Of a stretch of 39,434 nt of DNA, positions 5,618 through 39,434 are shown in pieces. Position 1 is the first letter of the stretch, and each line of letters starts with the position of its first letter. Made by a program: the position numbers and the translations under genes. This stretch comes from Elusimicrobiota bacterium (GTDB lineage: Bacteria > Elusimicrobiota > Elusimicrobia > FEN-1173), in the NCBI GenBank assembly GCA_028278255.1, contig JANQER010000241.1, positions 1-39,434 on the forward strand. The letters are read 5' to 3'. The notes beneath the pieces were generated by a model, which saw only the letters and a list, made by a program, of their open reading frames with translations, was not told where the DNA came from and did not search any database.

Positions 5618-5620
5618 ACA

Positions 5621-5720
5621 GGACGGGCTTGCCCGTCCTATTGACGAAATTGGCGCCCTTCGGGCGCGAAATTGGCTGGCTTAGCCAGCGAAATAGGTCC
5701 ACCTTCAGTGGACGAAATTT
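5621..5720 (+). repeat. REP/BIME-like array of short hairpins separated by conserved CGAAAT(T/A)G spacers
   Basis: GGACGGGCTTGCCCGTCC is followed by G-GCGCCC-TTC-GGGCGC-G AAATT, G-GCTGGC-TTA-GCCAGC-G AAATA and G-GTCCAC-CTTCA-GTGGAC-G AAATTT. The stems differ in sequence but keep 6-bp complementarity. The same family occurs in inverse orientation at 31529-31599 and 37754-37846. Confidence 0.85.
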
Positions 5721-6318: not shown

Positions 6319-6353
6319 TTGACAAAACATATATATATGACTATAATAGTCAT
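6319..6353 (+). promoter_or_regulatory. consensus sigma-70-type promoter with overlapping palindromic operator upstream of the antitoxin gene
   Basis: TTGACA (6319-6324), a 17-nt spacer, then TATAAT (6342-6347). The perfect 17-bp palindrome ATGACTATAATAGTCAT (6337-6353) overlaps the -10 box. GGAGG lies 9 nt before the ATG at 6382. Confidence 0.65.
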
Positions 6354-6381
6354 ATACAATAAGTCATGGAGGTCATAAATA

Positions 6382-6672
6382 ATGAACGCTGCTATTTACC
6401 AGCTCAAAGCCTCTCTCAGCGAATATTTGGCCCATGTCAAACACGGGGAAGAACTCATTATCACAGAACGAGGCAAACCAGTGGCTGTTATCAGCCCTCT
6501 CAAAAGGGAGGCATCACACACAACCGCGCATCTCATGGAACTTGAACGCGCCGGGCTCATAAAAACGGCTTCTTCACCTCTCACATCAGAATTCTGGCAC
6601 CTGACCCGGCCAAAAGATTTGTCCGATAAAGCCCAAAAATATCTCATGGATGAAAGGAGCGAAGACCGGTGA
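6382..6672 (+). CDS. type II antitoxin, Phd/YefM family
   Basis: 96 aa. MNAAIYQLKASLSEYLAHVKHGEELIITERGKPVAVISPL is the typical Phd/YefM N-terminal fold. Its stop overlaps the toxin start (GTGA at 6669-6672). Confidence 0.8.
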   Translation: MNAAIYQLKASLSEYLAHVKHGEELIITERGKPVAVISPLKREASHTTAHLMELERAGLIKTASSPLTSEFWHLTRPKDLSDKAQKYLMDERSEDR

Positions 6673-7865: not shown

Positions 7866-10800
7866 TTATGCATTTGAGCCAATCATCTCAGACAACTTTC
7901 TCAACCGATCAAACTCATCTGTGGCAATCTTAATTACCATGTTCCCTATGATCTGAAGAAGCACAGCTGCCTGACTGTATTGCGGGGTCACTGTCCAATT
8001 CATAATCACTGGTGACAGCACTTGCAATTGAACACCCTTACGCTCAAAATCCATGCTCTGATACTTCTGATCACTAACAAGCCTTTCAATCACTTTATCC
8101 ACAGAACATTTCACCTCATTGTTTGACATAACAATCAGCCTTTGACTTTCTGAACCCAAAGCCTCTGAAACAGACAATTTATCGTCATCCGTCACCACAA
8201 CCACTGGCGCTTCTCCATTTTTTTTCAGCAATGTCTTTGCCACAGTTAAAGCCTCTGTGCGTTCTATGTTCAACAAATTCCCTGGCACATGCACCACACA
8301 AGGCTGATCTGACTTTATTTCATTAATTGAATGAATTTTGGCTTTTTCATGCGCGGCCAAACCAAACCCAAACTCAAACCCTTGTGCCATCAGCGCCAAA
8401 ATCTTCTGCGGACTCAAATCTTCTACAATATCCAGAGTTCTCTGCAACACGCCTATATAAAAGACCATTTCCCTCTTCTGCCCCAAACCCGACATCAAGC
8501 CCACATTTAAACCCAAAACCCTGATCAACGCATCACACTCTTTTGCGCGCTCTTCTATGACTTTCACATTGCTTCTGATTCTGCTCTGCAAAACACCCAA
8601 AACCTCTCTCAACTCCTCTAAATTCTGAAAATTCATCCCGCGCACTAAGCCCTCAGTGGCTTGGAATTGACCCTCTCCCTTGATGGGAGAGGGCAGGGTG
8701 AGGGTGTCCAACAATCCTTCCACATTCTGCCAAGACACATCCTCTGCCTCTTCACTCTCCCCCAAAAATAACCGCAGTTTAACTTGGTTTTTCACTTGCA
8801 CCGGATCAATATCCACCTCAATTCTCGGATTCAATTTCTCCGTCTCATCAGACAGCTTCTTCACCTGAGGCAAAACAGTCTGATCCAAAACATATTGAAT
8901 CCATTCCTCTTCACTCAAAGAAGATTTTCCCAAAGGCAAAGTGATAACAAACGTGGTGCCATGGTCTTGAGGATATTCATCCACATGCCGGGTCTTAAAA
9001 GAAATCGTCCCGTTGCACCTCTCAATGCATTTCTTTGCAATATGCAGTCCAAGACCTCTTGACAAATTTCTGCCTCCTGTATCCAACTTGCTTGACACCC
9101 CGCGCTCAAAAACAGAATCTCTTATTTTTAATGGAATGCCCTGGGCATTGTCAGAAATTCTTATTTCCATGTCTTTCCCTTGATTCACAATTTCAGTCTC
9201 AATTCTCATTTTTCCTGAAATATCCTGGAGTTCAACCTCTCTTTCACTTATTTGTAATCCTTGTTTTTCCAATAACCCACGCATGGTTATATCATCTTTC
9301 ATTTCAGCAATAAAGTACTGCGCATTTTGAATGATATTTGCCAATGCCCGAAACAATGCCAATTTATTCGTTTTTAAAATTTGATGACCGCCGCCATAAT
9401 GAATGACCGTGTTCTCACGATTCACAACCTCATGTGCATGCCCGGCAAAAATCACATCAAACAAGTGATCCAAATCCACTAATTCTTCTTCATCACGAAA
9501 TGCTGCAAAATAATCTCTTAACACATACTGAACAAAAACAATCTTCAGTGCATCCTCCTTAGCTGAAAAATCATCCACAGAAAGTTCTTGATATATCTTT
9601 GTTAATTTTTCTCTTGCCATCTCAAATAAATAAACCTCGTCAATTTTACTTAAAATATTTTTTATTTGCTTGTTCGCCTTATTCACATCAGCAATTGTTT
9701 TTCCATTTTGAACTTGCTCCAAAAATGTTTTTAAATTTTTAGACAAGTCATAAAACCCACTCATCCAATTCCTATCCGCTTGTACCAAAGCATTATCATC
9801 AGACAAAAACTTCAATTGAGCCCCAAGAACACTCATCGGGCTCGTTAAATCATGCGCATTCGCTGCTGCCGCCAGTTTGGCCTCTTTCAGGGTCCTGCCA
9901 TTCATATCTTGAACACCAACAAGATAAACCAAATTATGACTGTATTCAGGATCAGGGAATGTTTCAATAATATCCAGCCCATTGAACGTCAACACCTCTT
10001 CCACAACGCCATTGCTTTCTTCTCCCCACAAAACCAAAAAACCTTCCTCAATCCCAGGCAATTGAGAGACTCCTTGAGCAAGTTCTGAAATAAAACTTCC
10101 TCTATCCCCGTCATGAAATCCAGCCAATTTTTTCGGTCTCATCACCCCCTGTCTCACATACTCTTTTCTAATCACCTCAAAACAAGTCAAAAGTGCTTCA
10201 TCTGACAAAGATTCCAGATCAGTGGCACCAGTGAGTCGTTTAAGCTTACCAATGCGTTCTTTTCTTTCCTCTTCAGTCAACGTCTCAAAAAATGGAGAAT
10301 TTGAACAAACCAGTGCTATTTTTTTATCACCAAAAACCGGTTCCCTTTTTTCATTCAGAACATTATTCCCGACTTTGGCCGTCACCCTAAAACCTGCCTG
10401 TTTGGCAAAAAATCTCATATTGGCAACTTCAAAAGGATTAATGCCCACTGCATAAATGTCCCGATTTGAATTTGTCCCAAGCCAAGCCACCCAAGCATCA
10501 ATCCCAGTCCCTGGCCCCACCACCAAAACACCACCTTCTTTATCCTCACCCAAAGCCTGGCCTACTGAGTAAACAGTCAACATATAAATGCGATCCGCTA
10601 AATAATTGTCACCAGCAGCCGGCGAATAAACTGTGGGAAAAACAGGAAATATGACCCGGGGATTTTCACTCTGACTGTCATAAATTTTTTCAAGCGCTTG
10701 ACCAAACCCCCTATCTTCAAGGCCAAACTCAACCAAACGCAACGCACCTTGTTCAACCCCCACAAACTCAGCAAAAACAAATGGCTTATTCTCTGGCTCA

Positions 10801-13800
10801 GGAGCTTTTATCACATACTCTGAAAGCCCTCTTTCCTCCCTATATCGTGTGATAGCCTCCTTAGATTGAGCACACTCTTTCTGAAATCTGATCCATTTAT
10901 TGATGGCTTGCTCATCATCAAAACCTGGTATCTCAAAATAGAATTCAGAAAAATCAAAATAATGATAGGGACACTCATCCCCATCGGAATGCTCTCCTAA
11001 AAGCTCTTCAGACACCACAGGGAAAATAGAAATCAAATATCCATTTTCATCAAACAACAATTCAAACCCACGTGTTGGTCCTAACTCATTAGACAACACA
11101 TCAATCCCCACTGGTGGATCAACAGGATTTTGACGTTCAGGGACACGAACCCTCATCACAGTCAAGCCGCTTGCCTGATCCACCTCTTCCTCAACCAACT
11201 CTGCCTGATGAAGTTCAAGCGCTTTTAACAACTCATAAGCCGGCATGTTCTTAACCTTTTCCAACAGATCATCAATATTGTGTCCATGGACGTTTCCTTG
11301 TTCCACACACATCAAATAATAAGGGCTGATCCCCCACAAAGAATCTTCTCCAATATTTCTTTCATAGGCAAAATAATCAGTGCTTGTCCCTCCGCCAGTG
11401 GAGATTGTCAAAACAGGCATATTTAACCCAGTCTCTCCTATCTCCCTCTCTTCCTGTTGCAGAGCCACCCTCTTTTCTTCATCCAAATCTAAAGCAGCTT
11501 TGACCAAGGGGGCTGTTTCACCCCCGCTCACAAAAGCAAATAATTCCCCATTGTCAATTCGTCCTTTAATATGATGTGCAATGGCATAGCTGCCCCTATG
11601 ATACGGTTCATCTTCAAAGTTCCCCTGTGGACTGTTCCAATACACAGCCTCCACTTCATCCAAAGCTCTTTTATATTTTTCAATGGTTCTTGGGCCAATA
11701 TCCAAGCCATCCACATCATCCTCTGCCAAAACAACCTCCACACCTCTTATCTTCAAATTTCCAATCCATTTGTTGTATTGCCTTTCCTGAACAATCCCAG
11801 CCAGTTTACCTCCAATAAGAATTTTATCTCCTTTTCGCAGTTTCTCTGAAAAATCTTGAATTAAAGGGATTTTGTCTTCTTTAATCCCGCCAAAAATAGC
11901 AGCCATAGAGCCACGCTTATCATGTTTTATGTATCTCAACATTTTTTGATGAATAAGCAGCTCCCTCTCCATCCAAAATCCCTTGACAGAAGGCATCGAC
12001 GTTTTCAACATCTCCACCACAGTGGTGTCAGACCGATGCGAAACCGGGAATCCATCTAAAACAAACACATCCCCTAATCTTGACACTTGATACGCCAATG
12101 CCTCTCTTTCAGCCGGGTCATCCGACTGCTCACGCCAATCAAATCTCGTATTATCAAGCATGGCCACATCACCCGCGCTCATGCCATGGATGTGATCGAT
12201 GATCTCGTCTGTTACAACAGCGTATCTTTTCTGACGGACTTCTTTGCCCCGCATCAAGTGAACATCTCTGTTCATAAGCTGACTCACTGCATTTCTCACA
12301 TGAGAAATATCATAGGCTTCTTCGACCCCCTCACCTGATGGACGACCAGAATGTGTCACAAGCACCACTTTTCCACCATTATTTAAAATATACTGCATTG
12401 TATTCACAGAGGCATTCAACCGGATATCATCAATTTTCTCTTCTTTTGGATCAAAATGCACATCATTAAAATCAACCCTCACCACAAAAGTTTTCCCCTT
12501 GATCGCATGAGGCGGAACCATATAAAGAGACATGGCATTGCTTTGTCTCAGCTCATCTATAAAACCACGGACCATTTCTGAGTCAAGATTGTCTCCCAAC
12601 CGCTCAATTTCCTCCTCCCATTGATACCCCCATATCCCAAGAAAGAAATCTCTGAATTCAGGAGGGACATTCCCCTGAAAACCAAGACTTTTCACATAAA
12701 GAGACATGGCTTTAAGTGCATTGGGCCAATGGGATTTCATCTCTGGATCCATCAAAATCTGCAAACAATTTCTTATATTGAATGTCAAAATATCTGGTAA
12801 TTGAGAATGATCTTCTCCACCTTTATTCTCATTCATACTTGCCATGGCCATAGACAATGGATATTCAACCTCATAAGGCCGTGCAGATCCTTGACCAGAG
12901 CCAGAGGGCTGATTAATCAGGGCGGGGGCAAGCCCCGCCCCTACGGATATATTCTTAAAATAATCTTTTGGGGAAACCTGATCAATACCGGTTATCCAAT
13001 TCACCACATACTGAATAGGCATATATTTCATCCACCCCATGGACGGCAACAATTCTTGCACAGGAATCCATCTGATTTCAAATTTCATCCCATGAAACAA
13101 ACCAGGCCAAGCACGTAACCCAAATTTTTCAGTTGGGGCCGTTGGACCGAGACGAAGGAGGCCGTGACTTTTTCGACGACAAAAGCGAGCGCAATGCCGT
13201 AAGCATTGGGCGAACTTGTGGAGGACTAAAAAGTCCGGCATCATTTGTCGAATCCAGGCACCCAATTGAAAAGTTTGGGTTAACACTCTTTTCCCTGTTA
13301 TTGATTTCTTTTGAACAGATTTCAGCTTAATCCTGGTAATGGCCCTGGTGCCATCTTTACTGTTTTCAGCTGTGATGGTCGCTCCCATGGCTTCCAAAGC
13401 CATGCGCGCAGCAGGCATGCCCACACCCCCAGAATAAAAAGAATCAGATTCTGTATCCTCAGTATTCACTTGAGCTGCCCGTCTTGCATAATCCACTTGA
13501 AACAATGGCTGAAGCCCCATCCAATCATGCAAAGGAGACAAAAATTTTCGAGGAAATGCTTTTGGGTTTGACACAATTAATTCAACAAATCCATTACCAG
13601 CTTCAACCACAGACAAATCAATGGACTTTAATGCTTTTTCCATACCTTGCTCTTGATTGACTTTAAGTGCATTTTCATAAATCCATTCAAGAGCAGCACA
13701 AAGCAACATGGGATCAGCCAATACTTTTTGATGGCCAATAGTCAAGTTATCAAGCTTAAACTCTCCATTTTTTGTATGAAACTCATGATTATTAAGCAAT

Positions 13801-16800
13801 TTTTTCAAATCTATTTCTTGAATTTGCGCCAATTTTGGATCAAACATGCGCAAAACGATACCCACAATATCAAGACCCCGCTTAATTGTGACAAGATAGC
13901 CTTTCCCTTTTTGGATGTTCTGCATTTTGCCCCATAATTTCTGCAAATATGATTGATAATCCTTTAACCATTTAATCCATATGCGGTACAATTCATCAAC
14001 ATCTTTTTTCCTAAATTGTCCTTTTAACAAAAAGCTCCTGACAAAACCAATCACCTGGGCATGATAAATTCTAAACTGTTCATCAAGACCACGAAATTGT
14101 TTTTCTAATAATTTCTTTTGCTCAGGATCACTTCGAAACACATAACCCAACACAAATGACATATTTGCCATTTGATTCATTAAAGCAAACCGTCCGCCAT
14201 GCCCTGTGACTGCAACAGAATTAACAATAAGCTGCGCTTTTTCATCATATGACTTTTGAACTGCATACCAAAAATCTCTGGCAAAACGCATGGCCACCAC
14301 AACACCAAAAGACAAAAAAATCAATGGCAATGAATAATGAGACAACACAAACACCTGCAAAATAGCATCAGCAGAAAACAAATCCAACCAATACAAGCCA
14401 AGCATAAAAACAGCATTTAAAACCAATGTCAAAACAAACCGAGACTGCACAAAAGAAGACACATAAAATCGAATTAAAAAACCCCGCTGTTTTTTGCCCA
14501 TCTCCTTTGCAGCACGCAGCAAACGCGCTTTTGCTATGACAAGAATGCCAAACTCACTTAAAATTTCCAGCCAAACCCTTTTCCAATCAAGCACATTTTT
14601 TTTGTACTGCACCAAACACCTCATCAATGTATGGCAAAACAAAAACACTGGCACAGACCACATCAACCCAATCACAAAAGCTGTCCCAGGATCAAACCCA
14701 TATGACATGAATATCACAGGCAACCCAATCAACCCACCCACACGAAACACAGCTTCTTCCCAAACCCCCAACAACAAATAATAAATCCCTCTTCCTTGCC
14801 ATGTTTTAAATCTTTTCATAGGCATAACAAAAGGCTCTAAAATATCAGCTGCAGCTGACCTGGCACCATGGCCATAAACAGATCCAAACACATTCACAAT
14901 AAATTGATTTTGAAAAATAAATGATTGAATCATTTCTAGCCAATAACTTAAACTCTCAACCAAAGCAAATCTGAATAAAGAAGACTTAAACAACACCAAC
15001 ACATAATCCTGGCCATTGACTGTGATGTCTGCTGTATGAATGTCATGCTCAAAACCCAATTTTTCCAACTGATGCTCAGCCATGGACAATTTTTCTTTTG
15101 TCATAAGCGCCAAATGGCATCTGGTTTTGCCCAATTTGTATCGAAAAACACTCAAAAACCCATTGTCTGTGATTTTTTGCTTAATCTCCATTTTAAATGA
15201 TTGTTCAATATCCAAAACCTCTGTCAAAGCCTTATCCCCAGCTTCAAGTTCAGACATATCTGTGTTTTTTAAAGCTGATTCAAATGCTGGCACAAAAAAA
15301 CGGTTCAATGATTGAAAAACCTGGCCTCGCATGGCTTTGATTTGAGACACATCCTGCACCATCACACGTTCAGCAGCCAAAAAAATCTTTTCTCCAGCCA
15401 ACATTTTCTCCAATGGAATCGGATCTCTGGCAAACACATTTAAATAATCATGGTTTTTGGGCACAGCTGTGATTTGAGGCGTGACCACCATATAAGAAGC
15501 ATTTTTTTGATGTAAAAGTTCTGTTATCCCTTTTGTGTGAAAGCCACCAGCCACTAAAACAGAAATAACAGGCAATTGATCCGTTGTCATCGGCAATGGC
15601 TGCTTCCCTAAGGCCACTGCACGGGCTGTCCCTACACCTGTCTCTTTGCCCTTTGCTCTTTGCTTGTTGAGCAAATTATCAACCAATGATTTGTTCCGCT
15701 TAATGGCCAATGCGCAAAATTGCTCAAAAGGCTTCAACAAGTTGCGGGGCAGGTCTTGGTCTATGGTCTTTGGGTTCTTGCCGCCAGGTATGATCCCAGT
15801 TTGTCGGATGGGACTATCGTCTTTGGTCTGTTGCTTATATTCTTCCCAATCCTTTGGGGTCATTTGATTGTGAATCAATTTTTCCAGCAAATGCACATAC
15901 CGGGTGGCTGTGACCAATTTTTTCTGTTCAGGTGTCACAGCCAAGGATTGTGCCACTGCTTTTTCCAATTGGGACAATTCTTCTAACAATTGATTGGGAT
16001 TCATTTTTTCTGACAATTTGACATAGTCAATATAAGCATTGAATTGAGCCAGAGATTTTAAGTCCATGCCCTGTTTTTGGCAAAGCCGGCGCAATAAATC
16101 ATAATATGCGCCATAAGCCATGCGGCCTGTTTTATAATCCATGCTTTGCTGAACAAGATGATTCAATTGATCAGATGATAATTTGGCACACAGCTTTTTA
16201 ATCAGTGCATGCCGCTGTTTTTCCACAACACCAAAATCAAGACTGTCTTCCCTGTCCAATGCCTGAATCAAGAGACAACTGTTTTTGAATTTTTGATTTT
16301 TGATTTGTGCTTTTTGATTGAGAAGCAAATACTTCACATATTGACCCAAGGCCTCTTCATGATTCTGATAAGCAGTGGCTTTCTTCTCATACTGTTTAAG
16401 TTCAGGAGAATAAACTTTTTGTTTTTGAGCCATAAGACTGCTTTTAAGATCTGACACAAGGGCTTGGACTTTGGTTTTGTTTTTAAGTGAGTCTTTGAAC
16501 GCCTGAATATTGGTATGATAGGTGGACAGGTCTTCAATTCCCCAAAGTTCAACAAGAGACTGATTGTCAATCGTCAGTGCAGAATATTCTGGTCCGCCAA
16601 TGTATCCTTCTTTTAAAAAATAATCAGCCAACCCTTTTGTGATATCATCATCAGAAAAATCCCTATACGCGTCCACAGCAAAAGCCCCGCTGGCGCCTTC
16701 AAGACCGATCAAAATGGATTTTTGATTTTTGATTTGCTGGAGTTCAAGCTCTCCCGTCTTTGATCTTTGGTCTTCGGCCTTTGGCCTTCGCTCTGTGGAC

Positions 16801-17291
16801 TTTGGACTTTGGTCTTTGGTCTTCGGTCTTCGGTCTTCGGTCTGACTGATATTGTCAATTATTTTTGCAATATTGCGTTGCGCTTCCTCAATTCCATGGG
16901 CATCCTGAATATGAACCACAAAAGGCGCATTAGGATCTGCTGACACATGTATTTCCCGAACAGAACCATAGACAGAAACAAGGCTGGCCAATCTATTGCC
17001 AACAGTATGAGCAGGGGACAATGAAGGAACCGAACTGCGGCTATTGATTGGGAAAGTTTGATGGGATGCCTTAGTGGACAGCTGTTGAATGGGTTGAACA
17101 GGGGAACTGGACAACAAAGCCAATTGAGCCTTTAAATGATTTTGCCGTTGGCCTCTCTGATCAAGCGCTTGCCTGCGTTCTTTCCAAAAACCGATTTCAG
17201 CAGAATACACGCCAATGACATTGGTGAGCACCAACACCACAGCCAAAAAAACACTCAATACTGATTTTGTCAATGTGCTAATAGTTATCAT
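7866..17291 (-). CDS. giant multidomain membrane protein (3141 aa): signal anchor, large ectodomain, CPBP-type membrane protease motifs, degenerate GHKL ATPase, phosphoglycerate kinase domain, SAM-dependent methyltransferase domain, HisKA/HATPase_c histidine kinase, unassigned C-terminus
   Basis: One stop-free frame. Motifs, N to C:
- hydrophobic N-terminus, aa 1-30
- EEAVFR (nt 14742-14759) and FLFCH within a polytopic block
- YENALK (nt 13662-13679) plus GGVGMPAARMALEAMG (nt 13383-13430)
- PGK motifs from RVDFN to STGGG (nt 11361-12533)
- VLVVGPGTGID (nt 10497-10529) and SNSPFF (nt 10287-10304)
- H-box NAHDLTSPMS (His codon 9852-9854), N-box LANIIQNAQ, G1 SDNAQGI, G2 RGLGLHIA
The ATG at 17291 has no obvious Shine-Dalgarno sequence. 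A TATAAT (reverse strand, 17299-17304) lies 7 nt upstream. Confidence 0.85.
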   Translation of the reverse strand: MITISTLTKSVLSVFLAVVLVLTNVIGVYSAEIGFWKERRQALDQRGQRQNHLKAQLALLSSSPVQPIQQLSTKASHQTFPINSRSSVPSLSPAHTVGNRLASLVSVYGSVREIHVSADPNAPFVVHIQDAHGIEEAQRNIAKIIDNISQTEDRRPKTKDQSPKSTERRPKAEDQRSKTGELELQQIKNQKSILIGLEGASGAFAVDAYRDFSDDDITKGLADYFLKEGYIGGPEYSALTIDNQSLVELWGIEDLSTYHTNIQAFKDSLKNKTKVQALVSDLKSSLMAQKQKVYSPELKQYEKKATAYQNHEEALGQYVKYLLLNQKAQIKNQKFKNSCLLIQALDREDSLDFGVVEKQRHALIKKLCAKLSSDQLNHLVQQSMDYKTGRMAYGAYYDLLRRLCQKQGMDLKSLAQFNAYIDYVKLSEKMNPNQLLEELSQLEKAVAQSLAVTPEQKKLVTATRYVHLLEKLIHNQMTPKDWEEYKQQTKDDSPIRQTGIIPGGKNPKTIDQDLPRNLLKPFEQFCALAIKRNKSLVDNLLNKQRAKGKETGVGTARAVALGKQPLPMTTDQLPVISVLVAGGFHTKGITELLHQKNASYMVVTPQITAVPKNHDYLNVFARDPIPLEKMLAGEKIFLAAERVMVQDVSQIKAMRGQVFQSLNRFFVPAFESALKNTDMSELEAGDKALTEVLDIEQSFKMEIKQKITDNGFLSVFRYKLGKTRCHLALMTKEKLSMAEHQLEKLGFEHDIHTADITVNGQDYVLVLFKSSLFRFALVESLSYWLEMIQSFIFQNQFIVNVFGSVYGHGARSAAADILEPFVMPMKRFKTWQGRGIYYLLLGVWEEAVFRVGGLIGLPVIFMSYGFDPGTAFVIGLMWSVPVFLFCHTLMRCLVQYKKNVLDWKRVWLEILSEFGILVIAKARLLRAAKEMGKKQRGFLIRFYVSSFVQSRFVLTLVLNAVFMLGLYWLDLFSADAILQVFVLSHYSLPLIFLSFGVVVAMRFARDFWYAVQKSYDEKAQLIVNSVAVTGHGGRFALMNQMANMSFVLGYVFRSDPEQKKLLEKQFRGLDEQFRIYHAQVIGFVRSFLLKGQFRKKDVDELYRIWIKWLKDYQSYLQKLWGKMQNIQKGKGYLVTIKRGLDIVGIVLRMFDPKLAQIQEIDLKKLLNNHEFHTKNGEFKLDNLTIGHQKVLADPMLLCAALEWIYENALKVNQEQGMEKALKSIDLSVVEAGNGFVELIVSNPKAFPRKFLSPLHDWMGLQPLFQVDYARRAAQVNTEDTESDSFYSGGVGMPAARMALEAMGATITAENSKDGTRAITRIKLKSVQKKSITGKRVLTQTFQLGAWIRQMMPDFLVLHKFAQCLRHCARFCRRKSHGLLRLGPTAPTEKFGLRAWPGLFHGMKFEIRWIPVQELLPSMGWMKYMPIQYVVNWITGIDQVSPKDYFKNISVGAGLAPALINQPSGSGQGSARPYEVEYPLSMAMASMNENKGGEDHSQLPDILTFNIRNCLQILMDPEMKSHWPNALKAMSLYVKSLGFQGNVPPEFRDFFLGIWGYQWEEEIERLGDNLDSEMVRGFIDELRQSNAMSLYMVPPHAIKGKTFVVRVDFNDVHFDPKEEKIDDIRLNASVNTMQYILNNGGKVVLVTHSGRPSGEGVEEAYDISHVRNAVSQLMNRDVHLMRGKEVRQKRYAVVTDEIIDHIHGMSAGDVAMLDNTRFDWREQSDDPAEREALAYQVSRLGDVFVLDGFPVSHRSDTTVVEMLKTSMPSVKGFWMERELLIHQKMLRYIKHDKRGSMAAIFGGIKEDKIPLIQDFSEKLRKGDKILIGGKLAGIVQERQYNKWIGNLKIRGVEVVLAEDDVDGLDIGPRTIEKYKRALDEVEAVYWNSPQGNFEDEPYHRGSYAIAHHIKGRIDNGELFAFVSGGETAPLVKAALDLDEEKRVALQQEEREIGETGLNMPVLTISTGGGTSTDYFAYERNIGEDSLWGISPYYLMCVEQGNVHGHNIDDLLEKVKNMPAYELLKALELHQAELVEEEVDQASGLTVMRVRVPERQNPVDPPVGIDVLSNELGPTRGFELLFDENGYLISIFPVVSEELLGEHSDGDECPYHYFDFSEFYFEIPGFDDEQAINKWIRFQKECAQSKEAITRYREERGLSEYVIKAPEPENKPFVFAEFVGVEQGALRLVEFGLEDRGFGQALEKIYDSQSENPRVIFPVFPTVYSPAAGDNYLADRIYMLTVYSVGQALGEDKEGGVLVVGPGTGIDAWVAWLGTNSNRDIYAVGINPFEVANMRFFAKQAGFRVTAKVGNNVLNEKREPVFGDKKIALVCSNSPFFETLTEEERKERIGKLKRLTGATDLESLSDEALLTCFEVIRKEYVRQGVMRPKKLAGFHDGDRGSFISELAQGVSQLPGIEEGFLVLWGEESNGVVEEVLTFNGLDIIETFPDPEYSHNLVYLVGVQDMNGRTLKEAKLAAAANAHDLTSPMSVLGAQLKFLSDDNALVQADRNWMSGFYDLSKNLKTFLEQVQNGKTIADVNKANKQIKNILSKIDEVYLFEMAREKLTKIYQELSVDDFSAKEDALKIVFVQYVLRDYFAAFRDEEELVDLDHLFDVIFAGHAHEVVNRENTVIHYGGGHQILKTNKLALFRALANIIQNAQYFIAEMKDDITMRGLLEKQGLQISEREVELQDISGKMRIETEIVNQGKDMEIRISDNAQGIPLKIRDSVFERGVSSKLDTGGRNLSRGLGLHIAKKCIERCNGTISFKTRHVDEYPQDHGTTFVITLPLGKSSLSEEEWIQYVLDQTVLPQVKKLSDETEKLNPRIEVDIDPVQVKNQVKLRLFLGESEEAEDVSWQNVEGLLDTLTLPSPIKGEGQFQATEGLVRGMNFQNLEELREVLGVLQSRIRSNVKVIEERAKECDALIRVLGLNVGLMSGLGQKREMVFYIGVLQRTLDIVEDLSPQKILALMAQGFEFGFGLAAHEKAKIHSINEIKSDQPCVVHVPGNLLNIERTEALTVAKTLLKKNGEAPVVVVTDDDKLSVSEALGSESQRLIVMSNNEVKCSVDKVIERLVSDQKYQSMDFERKGVQLQVLSPVIMNWTVTPQYSQAAVLLQIIGNMVIKIATDEFDRLRKLSEMIGSNA
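12920..12941. repeat. GC-rich palindrome GGGCGGGGCAAGCCCCGCCCC read through in frame inside the giant ORF
   Basis: It is near-identical to 37708-37728 inside the glcD-glcE-like ORF. Both are translated as AGLAPA. Confidence 0.8.
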
Positions 17292-35427: not shown

Positions 35428-35533
35428 TTTTGTAATTGCCCCATTCATGGGGCGCATCTTAGATGGGTTTTAGTTCTGAAGAGCCCGATAAATCTATCCA
35501 TATCCGGCTTTAGACGGAGAGCAATCACAAAAA
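35428..35533. repeat. MITE-like element (second copy), overlapping the glcF-like stop codon
   Basis: The sequence is TTTTGTAATTGCCCCATTCATGGGGCG ... GAGCCCGATAAATCTATCCATATCCGGCTTTAGACGGAGAGCAATCACAAAAA. Its internal block matches 18876-18915 almost base for base. The last ~13 codons and the stop of the glcF-like gene (35494-35533) lie inside it. Confidence 0.75.
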
Positions 35534-36866: not shown

Positions 36867-37030
36867 TTTTGTAATTGCCCTCCGTCTAAAGCCGGATATG
36901 GCTAGATTCATCGGGCGTTTTTGAGTTTTACATCCGCTTTTGTAATTGCCCGATTCATCGGGCGTTTTTGAGCTTTTCATCTGCTTTTGTAATTGCCCGA
37001 TTCATCGGGCGTTTTTGAGCTTTTCATCTG
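36867..37030. repeat. tandem array of three units derived from the MITE-like element (two identical 47-bp units plus one long-form unit)
   Basis: Units 36937-36983 and 36984-37030 are identical: CTTTTGTAATTGCCCGATTCATCGGGCGTTTTTGAGCTTTTCATCTG. The first unit (36867-36936) carries TCCGTCTAAAGCCGGATATGGCTA inserted in the hairpin, which makes it the long form seen at 18876-18915 and 35484-35525. Each unit contains GCCCGA-TTCA-TCGGGC followed by TTTTT on the plus strand. Confidence 0.85.
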
Positions 37031-37063: not shown

Positions 37064-39313
37064 TCAATCAAACACAACAGGATTAAAAACATTCTCCTGA
37101 TCAAAAACACGTTTAATCTTTCTGCACAAAGGAACATTGGCCCACGCAAAACACACCTTCTCCCCATCTCCCTGTCTCCCCATCTCCCCGTCTCGCCCTT
37201 CATCCCTCTCGCCTTTTGCATACAATCTTAATGTCACTTCCACAATCACACCCAGTGTTCCCCAAGCGCCCAAAAACAGTTTGGCCGCATCATAACCCGC
37301 CACATTCTTCACCACTTTCCCGCCAAACTCAACCACATCTCCATTGGCCAAAACAGCCTTAAGCCCAATCACCTGATCGCGCAAGTCAGGCAGCAAACTG
37401 GACCGTGTGGACAAAATCCCCCCCAGAGTCCCTACCCCCCTCACGCACACAAATTGATTGGCCGGCTTCAACACTTTATCCAAATCACCCAATGTCGCGC
37501 CTGCCTGAACTGTCAGGGTAAAATTATCTTTATCATGATCCACAATCTTATTTAAGCCATCCAAAACCAAGACCCTTGCCCCATCCGGCACAACAAACCC
37601 TTTTGTGCCTTTGCCTTTTAAAAACAATGTTTCCTTTTTTTCTGCTGCCTCTTGGCACAAGGACTGTAAATGCGCAATATTCCGTATCTGAATCACCTGC
37701 CCTGATCGGGCGGGGGCAAGCCCCGCCCGTACAGACCATTTGGAATCTGCACCATCAATTTCGTCCGGCCGGCTTTTGGCCGGATCAATTTCGCGCCCAA
37801 AGGGCGCCAATTTCGTCCGCCATGCCTTCTTGGCGGGCCAATTTCTATCAACTTTTCTCTCTGGCAGTATTTTCCCCGCATTGAACAAATGCCCCGGATC
37901 CAGCGCTTCTTTAATCCGCTGAAAAACATCAAGCGTCTCTGCTGAAAAAACCCACTTCATGGCCTCTCTCTTGTCCAGGCCAATGCCATGCTCGCCGGAC
38001 AAAGACCCGCCCAAATCCACGCACACCCGCATCATCTCATATCCCGCGGCTTTCACGCGCTTGGTCTGCGCCGGATAACGTTCATCAAAAATCATATTGG
38101 GATGAAGATTCCCATCGCCCAAATGGCCAATCAGCCCCATCCGAATATTCTCCCGTGCGGCAATGGCCCGGATCTGCTTCACCGCTTCAGGCAGCCGTGT
38201 TCTTGGCACCACCCCGTCTTCCACCAATACATTGGGCATCAAACGGGCCATGGCCGGATAAGCCCCTTTTCTCCCCTGCCAAAGTTTCTCCCGCTCCTGC
38301 TCATCTTTGGCTTCACGATATTCTTGGCAGCCATTTTTTTGACAGATTTCTCTAATTGCATTAATTTCCTGCTGCAATTTTTGTACGGGCTGGGCATGCC
38401 CAGCCTCTACGACATTTCTCTTTGCCATATGCCATAAATCATCCACTTCAATCAGCAAAACAGCTTCAGCGTCTTGGGGATAACCCGCATGAACAAACGC
38501 CTCAGTGGCTTGCACTGTGACCCGGTCAATAAACTCCAACGTGGTCGGCACAATCCCGGCTGACACAATGTCCGTGACTGACTGAACAGCAGTCCCTATT
38601 GATCCAAAGGACACAAGCAAAGTCCGAATTTCCGTAGGCACAGGCAAAAGTCCCACCTGAATTTTAGTAATCAACCCCAAAGTGCCTTCTGAACCCACAA
38701 AAAGTCCTGTCATGTCATACCCGGGGTCATCCACAGAGGTTCGGACCAATTCGCCGTCATAAAGAACCATCTCAAGCGCTTTCACATGATTTGATGTCAC
38801 CCCGTATTTCAAACAATGAGGCCCGCCTGCATTGGTGCCCACATTCCCGCCCAAAGTACACGCCTTTTGACTGGACGGGTCAGGCGCATAAAAAAGCCCG
38901 TGCGGCTCCAAAGCCTTTTGCAAATGACTGTTAATCACGCCTGGTTCCACCCAGGCTGTATGCTGCTCAGCCTGAATATCCAAAATCTTGTTCATCCTGG
39001 AAAAATGCATCACCATCCCGCGCTTCACCGGCACAGTGCTGCCGCACAAACCAGTGCCTGCCCCGCGCGCAGTCACAGGGATTTTGTATTGAGATGCCAA
39101 TTGTACAGCTTTCTGCACATCGGCCGTGCACTGCGGCAAAACCACCACATCCGGCAAACCTCTGTCCACAGCCCCGTCAAAAGAATAGAGCAGGCGCATC
39201 CCGGCGGAATCCAACACCTGATCCGGCCCTAATATTTTTCTCAGTTTCTCAATAAATTTTATATTCATATTTTTATATGCCCGGTCATGGCAAAGAACGG
39301 AGTTCAGACTCAT
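37064..39313 (-). CDS. FAD-linked oxidase, GlcD-like and GlcE-like halves fused in one frame
   Basis: 749 aa.
- aa 1 to ~480: GlcD-type FAD/PCMH domain plus C-terminal domain (ARGAGTGLCGS, GGNVGTNAGG, GSEGTLG, HLGDGNLHPN, SGEHGIG, ends ...LDPGHLFNAGKI)
- from about nt 37690 downward: a second PCMH FAD domain typical of GlcE (LFLKGKGTKG, VQAGATLGDL, KNVAGYD, GAWGTLGVIVEVTLRL)
- the ~60-codon linker is made of repeat elements
An alternative start is ATG 39268 (MNIKFIEKL). Confidence 0.8.
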   Translation of the reverse strand: MSLNSVLCHDRAYKNMNIKFIEKLRKILGPDQVLDSAGMRLLYSFDGAVDRGLPDVVVLPQCTADVQKAVQLASQYKIPVTARGAGTGLCGSTVPVKRGMVMHFSRMNKILDIQAEQHTAWVEPGVINSHLQKALEPHGLFYAPDPSSQKACTLGGNVGTNAGGPHCLKYGVTSNHVKALEMVLYDGELVRTSVDDPGYDMTGLFVGSEGTLGLITKIQVGLLPVPTEIRTLLVSFGSIGTAVQSVTDIVSAGIVPTTLEFIDRVTVQATEAFVHAGYPQDAEAVLLIEVDDLWHMAKRNVVEAGHAQPVQKLQQEINAIREICQKNGCQEYREAKDEQEREKLWQGRKGAYPAMARLMPNVLVEDGVVPRTRLPEAVKQIRAIAARENIRMGLIGHLGDGNLHPNMIFDERYPAQTKRVKAAGYEMMRVCVDLGGSLSGEHGIGLDKREAMKWVFSAETLDVFQRIKEALDPGHLFNAGKILPERKVDRNWPAKKAWRTKLAPFGREIDPAKSRPDEIDGADSKWSVRAGLAPARSGQVIQIRNIAHLQSLCQEAAEKKETLFLKGKGTKGFVVPDGARVLVLDGLNKIVDHDKDNFTLTVQAGATLGDLDKVLKPANQFVCVRGVGTLGGILSTRSSLLPDLRDQVIGLKAVLANGDVVEFGGKVVKNVAGYDAAKLFLGAWGTLGVIVEVTLRLYAKGERDEGRDGEMGRQGDGEKVCFAWANVPLCRKIKRVFDQENVFNPVVFD
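37708..37846 (-). repeat. GC-rich palindrome plus REP/BIME-like hairpin array inside the glcD-glcE linker
   Basis: GGGCGGGGGCAAGCCCCGCCC lies at 37708-37728. At 37754-37846 the plus strand reads ATCAATTTCG TCCGGCC-GGCTTTT-GGCCGGA TCAATTTCG CGCCC-AAA-GGGCG CCAATTTCG TCCGCC...GGCGGG CCAATTTC. The unit CGAAATTGGCGCCCTTTGGGCGCGAAATT is nearly identical to 5646-5673. Confidence 0.85.
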
Positions 39314-39329
39314 ATTTTTTGATGAAATT

Positions 39330-39434
39330 GTAACCCTGGGGTCGAGTGGCCCAGAGGGATCTCACCTCCAGGCTCTCACAGATCCGTACATGAGTCTCTC
39401 GATTCATACGGCTCTTACTGTTCGGCCATTCTCA
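39330..39434 (-). mobile_element. 3' end of a group II intron (domain V and domain VI region), partial at the window edge
   Basis: The reverse strand of 39381-39414 reads GAGCCGUAU-GAAUC-GAGA-GACUC-AU-GUACGGAUC. This is the 34-nt domain V layout: the AGC triad, a 2-nt bulge and a GNRA tetraloop. Further hairpins follow (CCUGGAGG..CCCUCUGGG and CUGGG..CCCAG), then ...GGGUUAC near 39330. The exact 3' boundary is uncertain. Confidence 0.6.

Follow-up and report, generated by a model that had tools for sequence, protein, structure and literature searches.

The DNA analysed here, a contig of 39 434 nt referred to below as the window, belongs to an Elusimicrobiota MAG from a coral metagenome. Two long minus-strand ORFs of the window each contain a copy of the same GC-rich palindrome (copy 1 and copy 2); one of these ORFs is of giant size and the other encodes a fusion protein. 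The two copies share their orientation and their reading frame, which gives (V)xAGLAPA. An earlier note on this DNA had described the palindrome as translated to AGLAPA in two genes, and both the sequence and the peptides VGAGLAPAL and VRAGLAPAR were confirmed; for copy 1 the location and the peptide given there were right, but one G was missing from the nucleotide string. The fusion ORF also carries a second palindrome and a series of other hairpin units, and a further hairpin is intergenic. The features are listed in table 1.

Table 1. Repeat elements of the window and the ORFs that contain them.
Feature	Positions	Strand	Description
Intergenic hairpin AGGACGGGCTTGCCCGTCCT	5620..5639	+	3 nt past a stop codon; first of a GAAATTG-spaced array (5640-5720)
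Host ORF of copy 1	7866..17291	-	3141 aa; PGK and HATPase_c domains
REP copy 1	12920..12944	-	coding strand GTAGGGGCGGGGCTTGCCCCCGCCC; V-G-A-G-L-A-P-A(-L), aa 1450-1458 of the 3141-aa ORF
Host ORF with copy 2 plus the second palindrome	37064..39313	-	749 aa; GlcD-GlcE-type FAD oxidase fusion
REP copy 2	37708..37732	-	coding strand GTACGGGCGGGGCTTGCCCCCGCCC; V-R-A-G-L-A-P-A(-R), aa 528-536 of the 749-aa GlcD-GlcE fusion
'Hairpin + GAAATTG' units, three to four	37756..37845	-	rest of the enlarged GlcD-GlcE linker, in frame
Second GTAG-type palindrome, 'double foot'	38383..38410	-	coding strand GTAGAGGCTGGGCATGCCCAGCCCGTAC; VVEAGHAQPV, part of LWHMAKRNVVEAGHAQ

On the plus strand, copy 1 reads GGGCGGGGGCAAGCCCCGCCCC (12920-12941, 22 nt) and copy 2 reads GGGCGGGGGCAAGCCCCGCCC (37708-37728). 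The latter string is the 21-nt core that is identical in the two copies, and in both it is followed, one base further, by TAC. The full units are GGGCGGGGGCAAGCCCCGCCCCTAC for copy 1 (12920-12944) and GGGCGGGGGCAAGCCCCGCCCGTAC for copy 2 (37708-37732). On the coding strand, the GC hairpin comes immediately after GTAG in copy 1 and after GTAC in copy 2; the second palindrome has both of these tetranucleotides, GTAG plus GTAC. Copies 1 and 2 form hairpins of -19.4 and -24.6 kcal/mol, respectively, with nine base pairs in the GC stem and five nucleotides in the loop, the nine pairs of copy 2 being reached through C37707 and G37729. The RNA hairpins of the three GTAG-type elements are very stable, at -18 to -25 kcal/mol. 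No match to the palindrome was found in 100 dinucleotide-preserving shuffles of the window, and chance is thus no explanation for the paired copies. An intrinsic terminator was also considered and rejected, since a T-run after the hairpin is absent on either strand in copies 1 and 2 and both lie deep within ORFs. Rfam has no family at the palindrome; its sole match in the window, to a group II intron, lies where the contig ends.

The exact 19-mer core was scanned in one genome per prokaryotic species. It is present at at least 120 loci distributed over many phyla, and the loci listed include representatives of Acidobacteriota, Chloroflexota, Bacteroidota (Hymenobacter, Chitinophaga), Armatimonadota, Planctomycetota, Ignavibacteria, Latescibacterota and others. 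More than one copy, up to four, is present at several of the listed loci, and such copies often form inverted pairs. When 141 copies from these loci were aligned, G was found at position -1 in 130 of them, and C, C, T, A and C at positions +19 to +23 in 123-134 of the 141 copies listed (87-95% per position); the resulting CCTAC (GTAGG) tag is present in about 92 per cent of the copies listed. The more distant flanks vary by lineage, and no more than a few bases beyond the hairpin are shared. A conserved tag combined with divergent outer flanks indicates that the conserved unit is a 25-mer with a GTAGG foot. Copy 1 matches this cross-phylum consensus exactly, CCCCTAC included. The GTAC head of copy 2 is also found elsewhere, in nine of the 141 copies among those listed, and is outside the degenerate GYAG and GTRG forms given for GTAG REPs by Di Nocera et al. 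(2013, PMC3733652).

The GTAGG-foot architecture is the one that defines GTAG-tagged REPs (Di Nocera et al. 2013, PMC3733652). Like these, the element is a short GC-rich imperfect palindrome within the range of 20-40 nt, forms a stem-loop and ends in an unpaired GTAG (or degenerate) tetranucleotide. GTAG-tagged REPs typically occupy extragenic sites just 3' of genes, whereas all three copies in the window are inside ORFs. Such REPs are as a rule present in many copies per genome, together with a cognate RAYT/TnpA_REP gene that the REP often flanks (a REPtron). Its closest resemblance is to the REPs termed 'canonical long' and 'double foot', which are associated with TnpA_REP subclass 2.4. The earlier note had suggested that this genome may carry an element analogous to the Rickettsia palindromic elements; the palindrome is neither peculiar to this genome nor only such an analogue, but a GTAG-tagged REP whose 25-nt sequence is common to many phyla and sometimes lies near RAYT genes. 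Among viral contigs there are only two exact matches to the REP, so phages are no evident vector.

The nearest homologues of the GlcD-GlcE protein are annotated as Elusimicrobia and are 56% identical to it, and the fusion is conserved in Elusimicrobiota homologues of about 650-720 aa. An alignment of 22 sequences, namely the window protein and 21 Elusimicrobiota homologues, revealed three segments that are private to the window protein. One of them, KWSVRAGLAPARS, corresponds to copy 2; it consists of 13 aa in the inter-domain linker and is opposed by gaps in 21 of the 21 homologues. This linker varies among homologues, and the boundaries of the insert are therefore not sharp. The second palindrome is an even cleaner insert, its segment LWHMAKRNVVEAGHAQ (16 aa) being flanked by well-conserved blocks and absent from all 21 homologues. 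The third private segment, ERDEGRDGEMGRQGDGEK-like, is near the C-terminus. The GlcD-GlcE copies were clearly inserted into a fusion that was already old. Related Elusimicrobiota loci, eight in number and about 140 kb in all, contain no GTAG-tagged hairpin.

The 18-nt core of the second palindrome occurs at 104 loci in many phyla; GTAGG/CCTAC tags are present in 47 of 103 copies. The shared core and the tags identify it as a second GTAG-type REP. It is read in the frame used by copies 1 and 2 (GTA = Val).

An AlphaFold2 model of the GlcD-GlcE protein built on the same 22-sequence alignment has a pLDDT of 82 and a pTM of 0.85. Its segments with pLDDT below 50 are residues 32-34 and 70-76, both short, and residues 281-291, 473-521 and 688-702, which coincide with the three private inserts. 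The second palindrome's insert corresponds to 281-291, and copy 2 is within 473-521. The proposal of the earlier note that short palindromic elements are read through in frame and add peptide segments to proteins is thus borne out for GlcD-GlcE, both by the alignment, in which copy 2 and the clean 16-aa insert of the second palindrome are private against 21 homologues, and by the location of the inserts in low-confidence loops and linker of an otherwise confident model.

The GlcD-GlcE linker has expanded from about 20 to about 75 residues, an increase made up almost wholly of the REP and of 'hairpin + GAAATTG' units. The intergenic hairpin at 5620-5639 starts an array of variable hairpins with the same spacer. 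The earlier note had taken a hairpin at 5621 for a shorter relative of the GC-rich palindrome; an intergenic hairpin does exist there, but it was rejected as a member of the REP family, since it has no GTAG/CTAC tag, shares only the centre GGGCTTGCCC with the REP and belongs to a different array. The summed Logan word depth at 37810-37850 is 504, against about 8 for the surrounding genome. The high-copy repeat at this place is the GAAATTG-spaced hairpin family, not the GC-rich REP.

The surroundings of copy 1 are of a different nature. Residues 1100-1590 of the giant ORF constitute an orphan stretch of 490 aa for which no homologue was found in 1.84 billion representative proteins, and the PGK-containing region at residues 1150-1750 is shared by no other protein of at least 1727 aa. 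Since copy 1 lies in sequence without homologues, a gene fusion may have turned a formerly extragenic element into coding sequence. The codon-usage score, with the other genes of the window as training set, reaches its minimum at aa 1361-1520, around copy 1, with frame 0 still the best throughout; the ORFs of the other frames near copy 1 are all short. By chance, about 245 successive codons at 43% GC would stay free of stops with a probability of about 5e-7 (an estimate from base composition), which argues that the frame of the giant ORF is maintained.

Copy number and assembly were assessed with independent Logan contigs of the coral-metagenome run X1, the one public run that contains the contig; only copies sharing about 30 nt or more are detected in this way, and the counts are lower bounds. 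A Logan contig of 12.3 kb covers 12500-13400, with copy 1 in its context, without a single difference, and a contig of 1068 nt spans the second palindrome. Within the GlcD-GlcE linker the Logan assembly is interrupted, which leaves copy 2 without contextual coverage. There are three additional short contigs with the REP: one of 402 nt that carries an inverted pair (depth 3.7), one of 419 nt (depth 4.2) and one of 626 nt, with a depth of 9.3 that is near the 7-11 of the genome. They show that more than two copies exist in the sample, and are not assignable to the Elusimicrobiota genome. The REP copy number in this genome looks low, on counts that are lower bounds and sample-wide.

RAYT genes were searched for by tblastn in all fetched loci, with the E. 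coli RayT (annotated K-12 record) and then its matches as queries. None was found in the window. RAYT-like genes were found in four of the 120 loci listed. In Chitinophaga silvatica (locus L064), the gene is 285 nt from the REP; in a Dehalococcoidia MAG (L015), the REP is in frame inside the RAYT-like gene, in the interval between the motifs HIH and NYYE, and is read as RAGASPAPT; in a Flavobacteriales MAG (L050), the RAYT-like match lies between two flanking REP copies; and at a fourth locus (L092), the gene is about 6.6 kb from the REP. The Flavobacteriales match was obtained by tblastn only and the other three by tblastn and family scan, the best family of these three ORFs being NF047646 (REP-associated tyrosine transposase; E 1e-16 to 1e-22), and two of them also pass the Pfam Y1_Tnp cut-off. 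The DNA sampled amounts to about 0.9 Mb. RAYTs are usually single-copy, and roughly 0.2 such genes would be expected by chance in a sample of this size, as estimated from typical genome size. On this estimate, the proximity of REP and RAYT exceeds the chance expectation. For TnpA_REP subclass 2.4, Quentin et al. (2018, PMC6006769) describe REPs with three G-C pairs at the stem base, 'double foot' REPs, REPs in frame within the tnpA_REP gene in the HuH-Y interval, and a patchy cross-phylum distribution that fits horizontal transfer.

Five of the six frames of the REP are stop-free, and the sole closed frame reads the TAG of GTAG. Coding or intergenic status was judged only in loci below 56% GC, because several frames are open at once in high-GC genomes and ORF length is then uninformative. 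In these loci, most REP copies are outside long ORFs or at ORF ends, and a minority are deep inside. The latter, recognized by eye from the translations, include a copy in frame in a priA-like helicase (L028), two copies in a DNA methylase with an NPPY motif (L021) and a copy in the ORF of a 747-aa protein (L084). Together with the copy inside the Dehalococcoidia RAYT-like gene, the in-ORF copies use at least four frames (VGAGLAPA, RAGASPAPT, GRGQAPPL and CRGGACPRP). With five frames open and at least four used elsewhere, the AGLAPA shared by copies 1 and 2 is a one-in-five coincidence and not evidence of selection. The idea, also put forward in the earlier note, that insertion is selected for thus found no support: no sign of selection was seen, and tolerance at permissive sites explains the inserts. 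Intragenic GTAG REPs, including those translated as VGAGLPA and VGAGEPAK in Pseudomonas putida, were described by Di Nocera et al. (2013, PMC3733652), who argued that inserts of this kind are retained in flexible linkers or loops.

We consider it probable that the palindrome is a GTAG-tagged REP, copies of which landed in genes and were tolerated at permissive sites, most likely as neutral passengers. Such hairpins are recognized by RAYT/TnpA_REP tyrosine (HUH-Y1) transposases, which are thought to mobilize them. A RAYT would have moved these elements, one REP in two copies and the other in one, which landed inside genes of this genome. They may have survived there because five of the six frames contain no stop codon and because the sites were permissive, namely the linker between two domains, a loop at the protein surface and an orphan stretch of low complexity. 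The inserts would be translated, each adding roughly 8-16 disordered residues, and would most likely be neutral for the proteins.

Several other explanations have to be weighed against this one. An independent origin of the two copies without relation to REPs, for instance by convergence of GC hairpins, might be suggested by the lack of a RAYT gene in the window and the few copies detected; the identity of 21 nt and TAC between the copies, the negative result with the shuffles and the exact fit of copy 1, tag included, to the 25-nt consensus of at least 120 loci effectively refute it. Artefacts of assembly, that is chimeric joins or errors at a short repeat, are a general concern for a MAG contig from a metagenome, and the break of the Logan contigs in the GlcD-GlcE linker leaves copy 2 uncovered in context. 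Nevertheless, copy 1 and the second palindrome are both spanned by independent contigs, the former without differences, copy 2 is flanked on either side by parts of one conserved fusion protein without loss of the frame, all of which makes an artefact highly improbable. It is also improbable that the hairpins are kept for a role in cis in RNA or DNA (ribosome pausing between domains, mRNA processing or stability, or a gyrase/IHF site), with the peptide as a by-product. Their stability would suit such a role, two of the three are between structural modules, and all three have the GTAG-type head on the coding strand and the same frame. Yet none of the 21 homologues has a hairpin at these sites, the REP occurs at unrelated sites and in at least four frames in other genomes, and the coincidence of three events in one of the five open frames, with a chance of about 1/25, is weak.

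The remaining alternatives concern the origin of the giant ORF. Copy 1 could have been an extragenic REP between genes that became coding only when the loss of stop codons fused its neighbours, including pgk. The codon score is weakest in the stretch around it, this stretch belongs to the orphan region, the PGK-containing region has no counterpart in other proteins of comparable length, and REPs are normally found just downstream of genes (PMC3733652). This scenario is nevertheless unlikely in view of the improbably long stop-free run, which points to a maintained frame, and of the shortness of the other frames there; moreover, the GlcD-GlcE copies, for their part, were clearly inserted into an old fusion. 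A related and rather doubtful possibility is that the REPs and the much more abundant GAAATTG units are not mere tolerated passengers but the material from which inter-domain linkers such as that of GlcD-GlcE are lengthened, and that they may in addition have bridged genes into the 3141-aa ORF. If so, genes could fuse, and orphan protein sequence could arise, through accretion of repeats. Insertion of REPs at permissive sites remains the reading that we prefer.

Three known systems are comparable to the elements described here. The GTAG REPs (PMC3733652, PMC6006769) share with them the GC-rich hairpin of 20-40 nt, the unpaired GTAG foot, the three basal G-C pairs, the 'double foot' variant (here the second palindrome), the patchy distribution over phyla and peptides of the VGAG... 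type. They differ in that the three window copies are all intragenic, none being extragenic or dimeric, that no RAYT was found in the 39-kb contig and that the copy number appears low. The main text of Di Nocera et al. (2013, PMC3733652) makes no mention of Elusimicrobiota; these authors placed the intragenic RPE-4 and RPE-6 of R. conorii among the CGTC-tagged REPs and not among the GTAG REPs.

The Rickettsia palindromic elements (RPE-1 and relatives) are likewise palindromic repeats that are found in frame in protein-coding genes and add peptides at permissive sites. RPE-1, with a length of about 100-150 bp, is confined to Rickettsia and is not known to have a dedicated transposase, whereas the element studied here has 25 nt, is GTAG-tagged and crosses phyla. 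REPINs and BIMEs, the inverted REP doublets of Pseudomonas and E. coli, have the REP hairpin as a building block, and an inverted pair of the present REP is found on the 402-nt contig of the source metagenome. By contrast, the window copies are intragenic singletons about 25 kb apart and not doublets.

The elements of the window are a new example, in a new host, of a known phenomenon, since in-frame intragenic REPs have been published (PMC3733652, PMC6006769), and REP biology as known is unchanged by the finding. For the annotation of MAGs, such inserts matter in that they inflate and 'orphanise' protein regions, break short-read assemblies and lead to spurious peptide matches, such as AGLAPA, between proteins that are unrelated. 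The documented in-frame insertion of REPs is extended to the Elusimicrobiota, and there is further evidence for the occurrence of one 25-nt REP, tag included, across many phyla, which fits a horizontal spread of a RAYT-REP system.

The 25 nt REP, the GTAG-tagged palindrome of the window, was also found in frame in ORFs of other genomes. A RAYT-like gene of a Dehalococcoidia MAG (locus L015, 6593–7186, minus strand) carries this exact REP as an in-frame insert, placed between its HuH motif and its Y motif, where it is read as the peptide RAGASPAPT. An in-frame REP at this place has been reported as a trait of TnpA_REP subclass 2.4 (Quentin 2018, PMC6006769). In a second locus, L084 (approx. 6330–6470), the in-frame REP of a 747 aa ORF lies between imperfect direct repeats of about 20 nt, with TLHVPFQ encoded on either side; the repeat may be a footprint of how this copy arose.

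The third example, an ORF of a Planctomycetia MAG (L038, 409–1176, plus strand), shows homology (BLASTP, E = 7e-11) to the 'HIQDAH' domain at the N-terminus of the giant ORF. It contains an in-frame copy of the same REP as the window, read as VGAGLAPA, and a second REP-like peptide, VGARHAVPL, shortly after the signal-like N-terminus. Compared with a Planctomycetia homologue, the N-terminal part of the giant ORF carries a private low-complexity insert, DRRPKTKDQSPKSTERRPKAEDQRSKT. A full PGK domain (from aa 1597 onward) and a HATPase_c domain are both embedded in this 3141 aa ORF (7866–17291, minus strand). No homologue of aa 1100–1590 was found anywhere, and this region is common to no other protein of at least 1727 aa.

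The window contains other small repeats (see table). In two arrays, small hairpins that vary among themselves stand apart with a constant GAAATTG spacer between them, and the array that is read in frame makes up most of the enlarged GlcD–GlcE linker. The summed word depth at 37810–37850 in Logan, an independent assembly of the source coral metagenome, is about 504, versus about 8 for the genome; the array is thus a very high-copy repeat. Lone CGAAATTG/CAATTTCG sites also occur in the window.

Repeats and associated features of the window.
Feature	Position	Strand	Remarks
Hairpin array, GAAATTG spacer	5640–5720	+	intergenic
Hairpin array, GAAATTG spacer	37756–37845	-	read in frame
CGAAATTG/CAATTTCG, lone sites	562, 14092, 31543		
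Third private GlcD–GlcE insert, ERDEGRDGEMGRQGDGEK	37150–37200	-	pLDDT < 50
ttgtaattGCCC(C/G)ATTCAT(G/C)GGGC	35430–35453, 36940–36963, 36987–37010		three copies, all intergenic
Palindrome CCCTCTCCCTTGATGGGAGAGGG, then CAGGGT	8671–8693		giant ORF, in-frame peptide PSPIKGEG
Group II intron match, domains V/VI (RF00029)	39341–39416	-	Rfam, 50.6 bits, E = 3e-7

The group II intron match is situated at the extreme end of the contig, a short way upstream of the glcD–glcE start codon. The contig may stop at this point because of a repeated intron.

Two further kinds of hairpin were observed. The ttgtaattGCCC copies, found near the glcF-like and glcDE genes, form a small hairpin whose 5' flank is conserved. 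The CCCTCTCCCTTGATGGGAGAGGG hairpin has a near-identical counterpart with an identical 3' flank in a related Elusimicrobia MAG (L123, 8678–8698) and, from this sequence match, looks like another widespread hairpin family.
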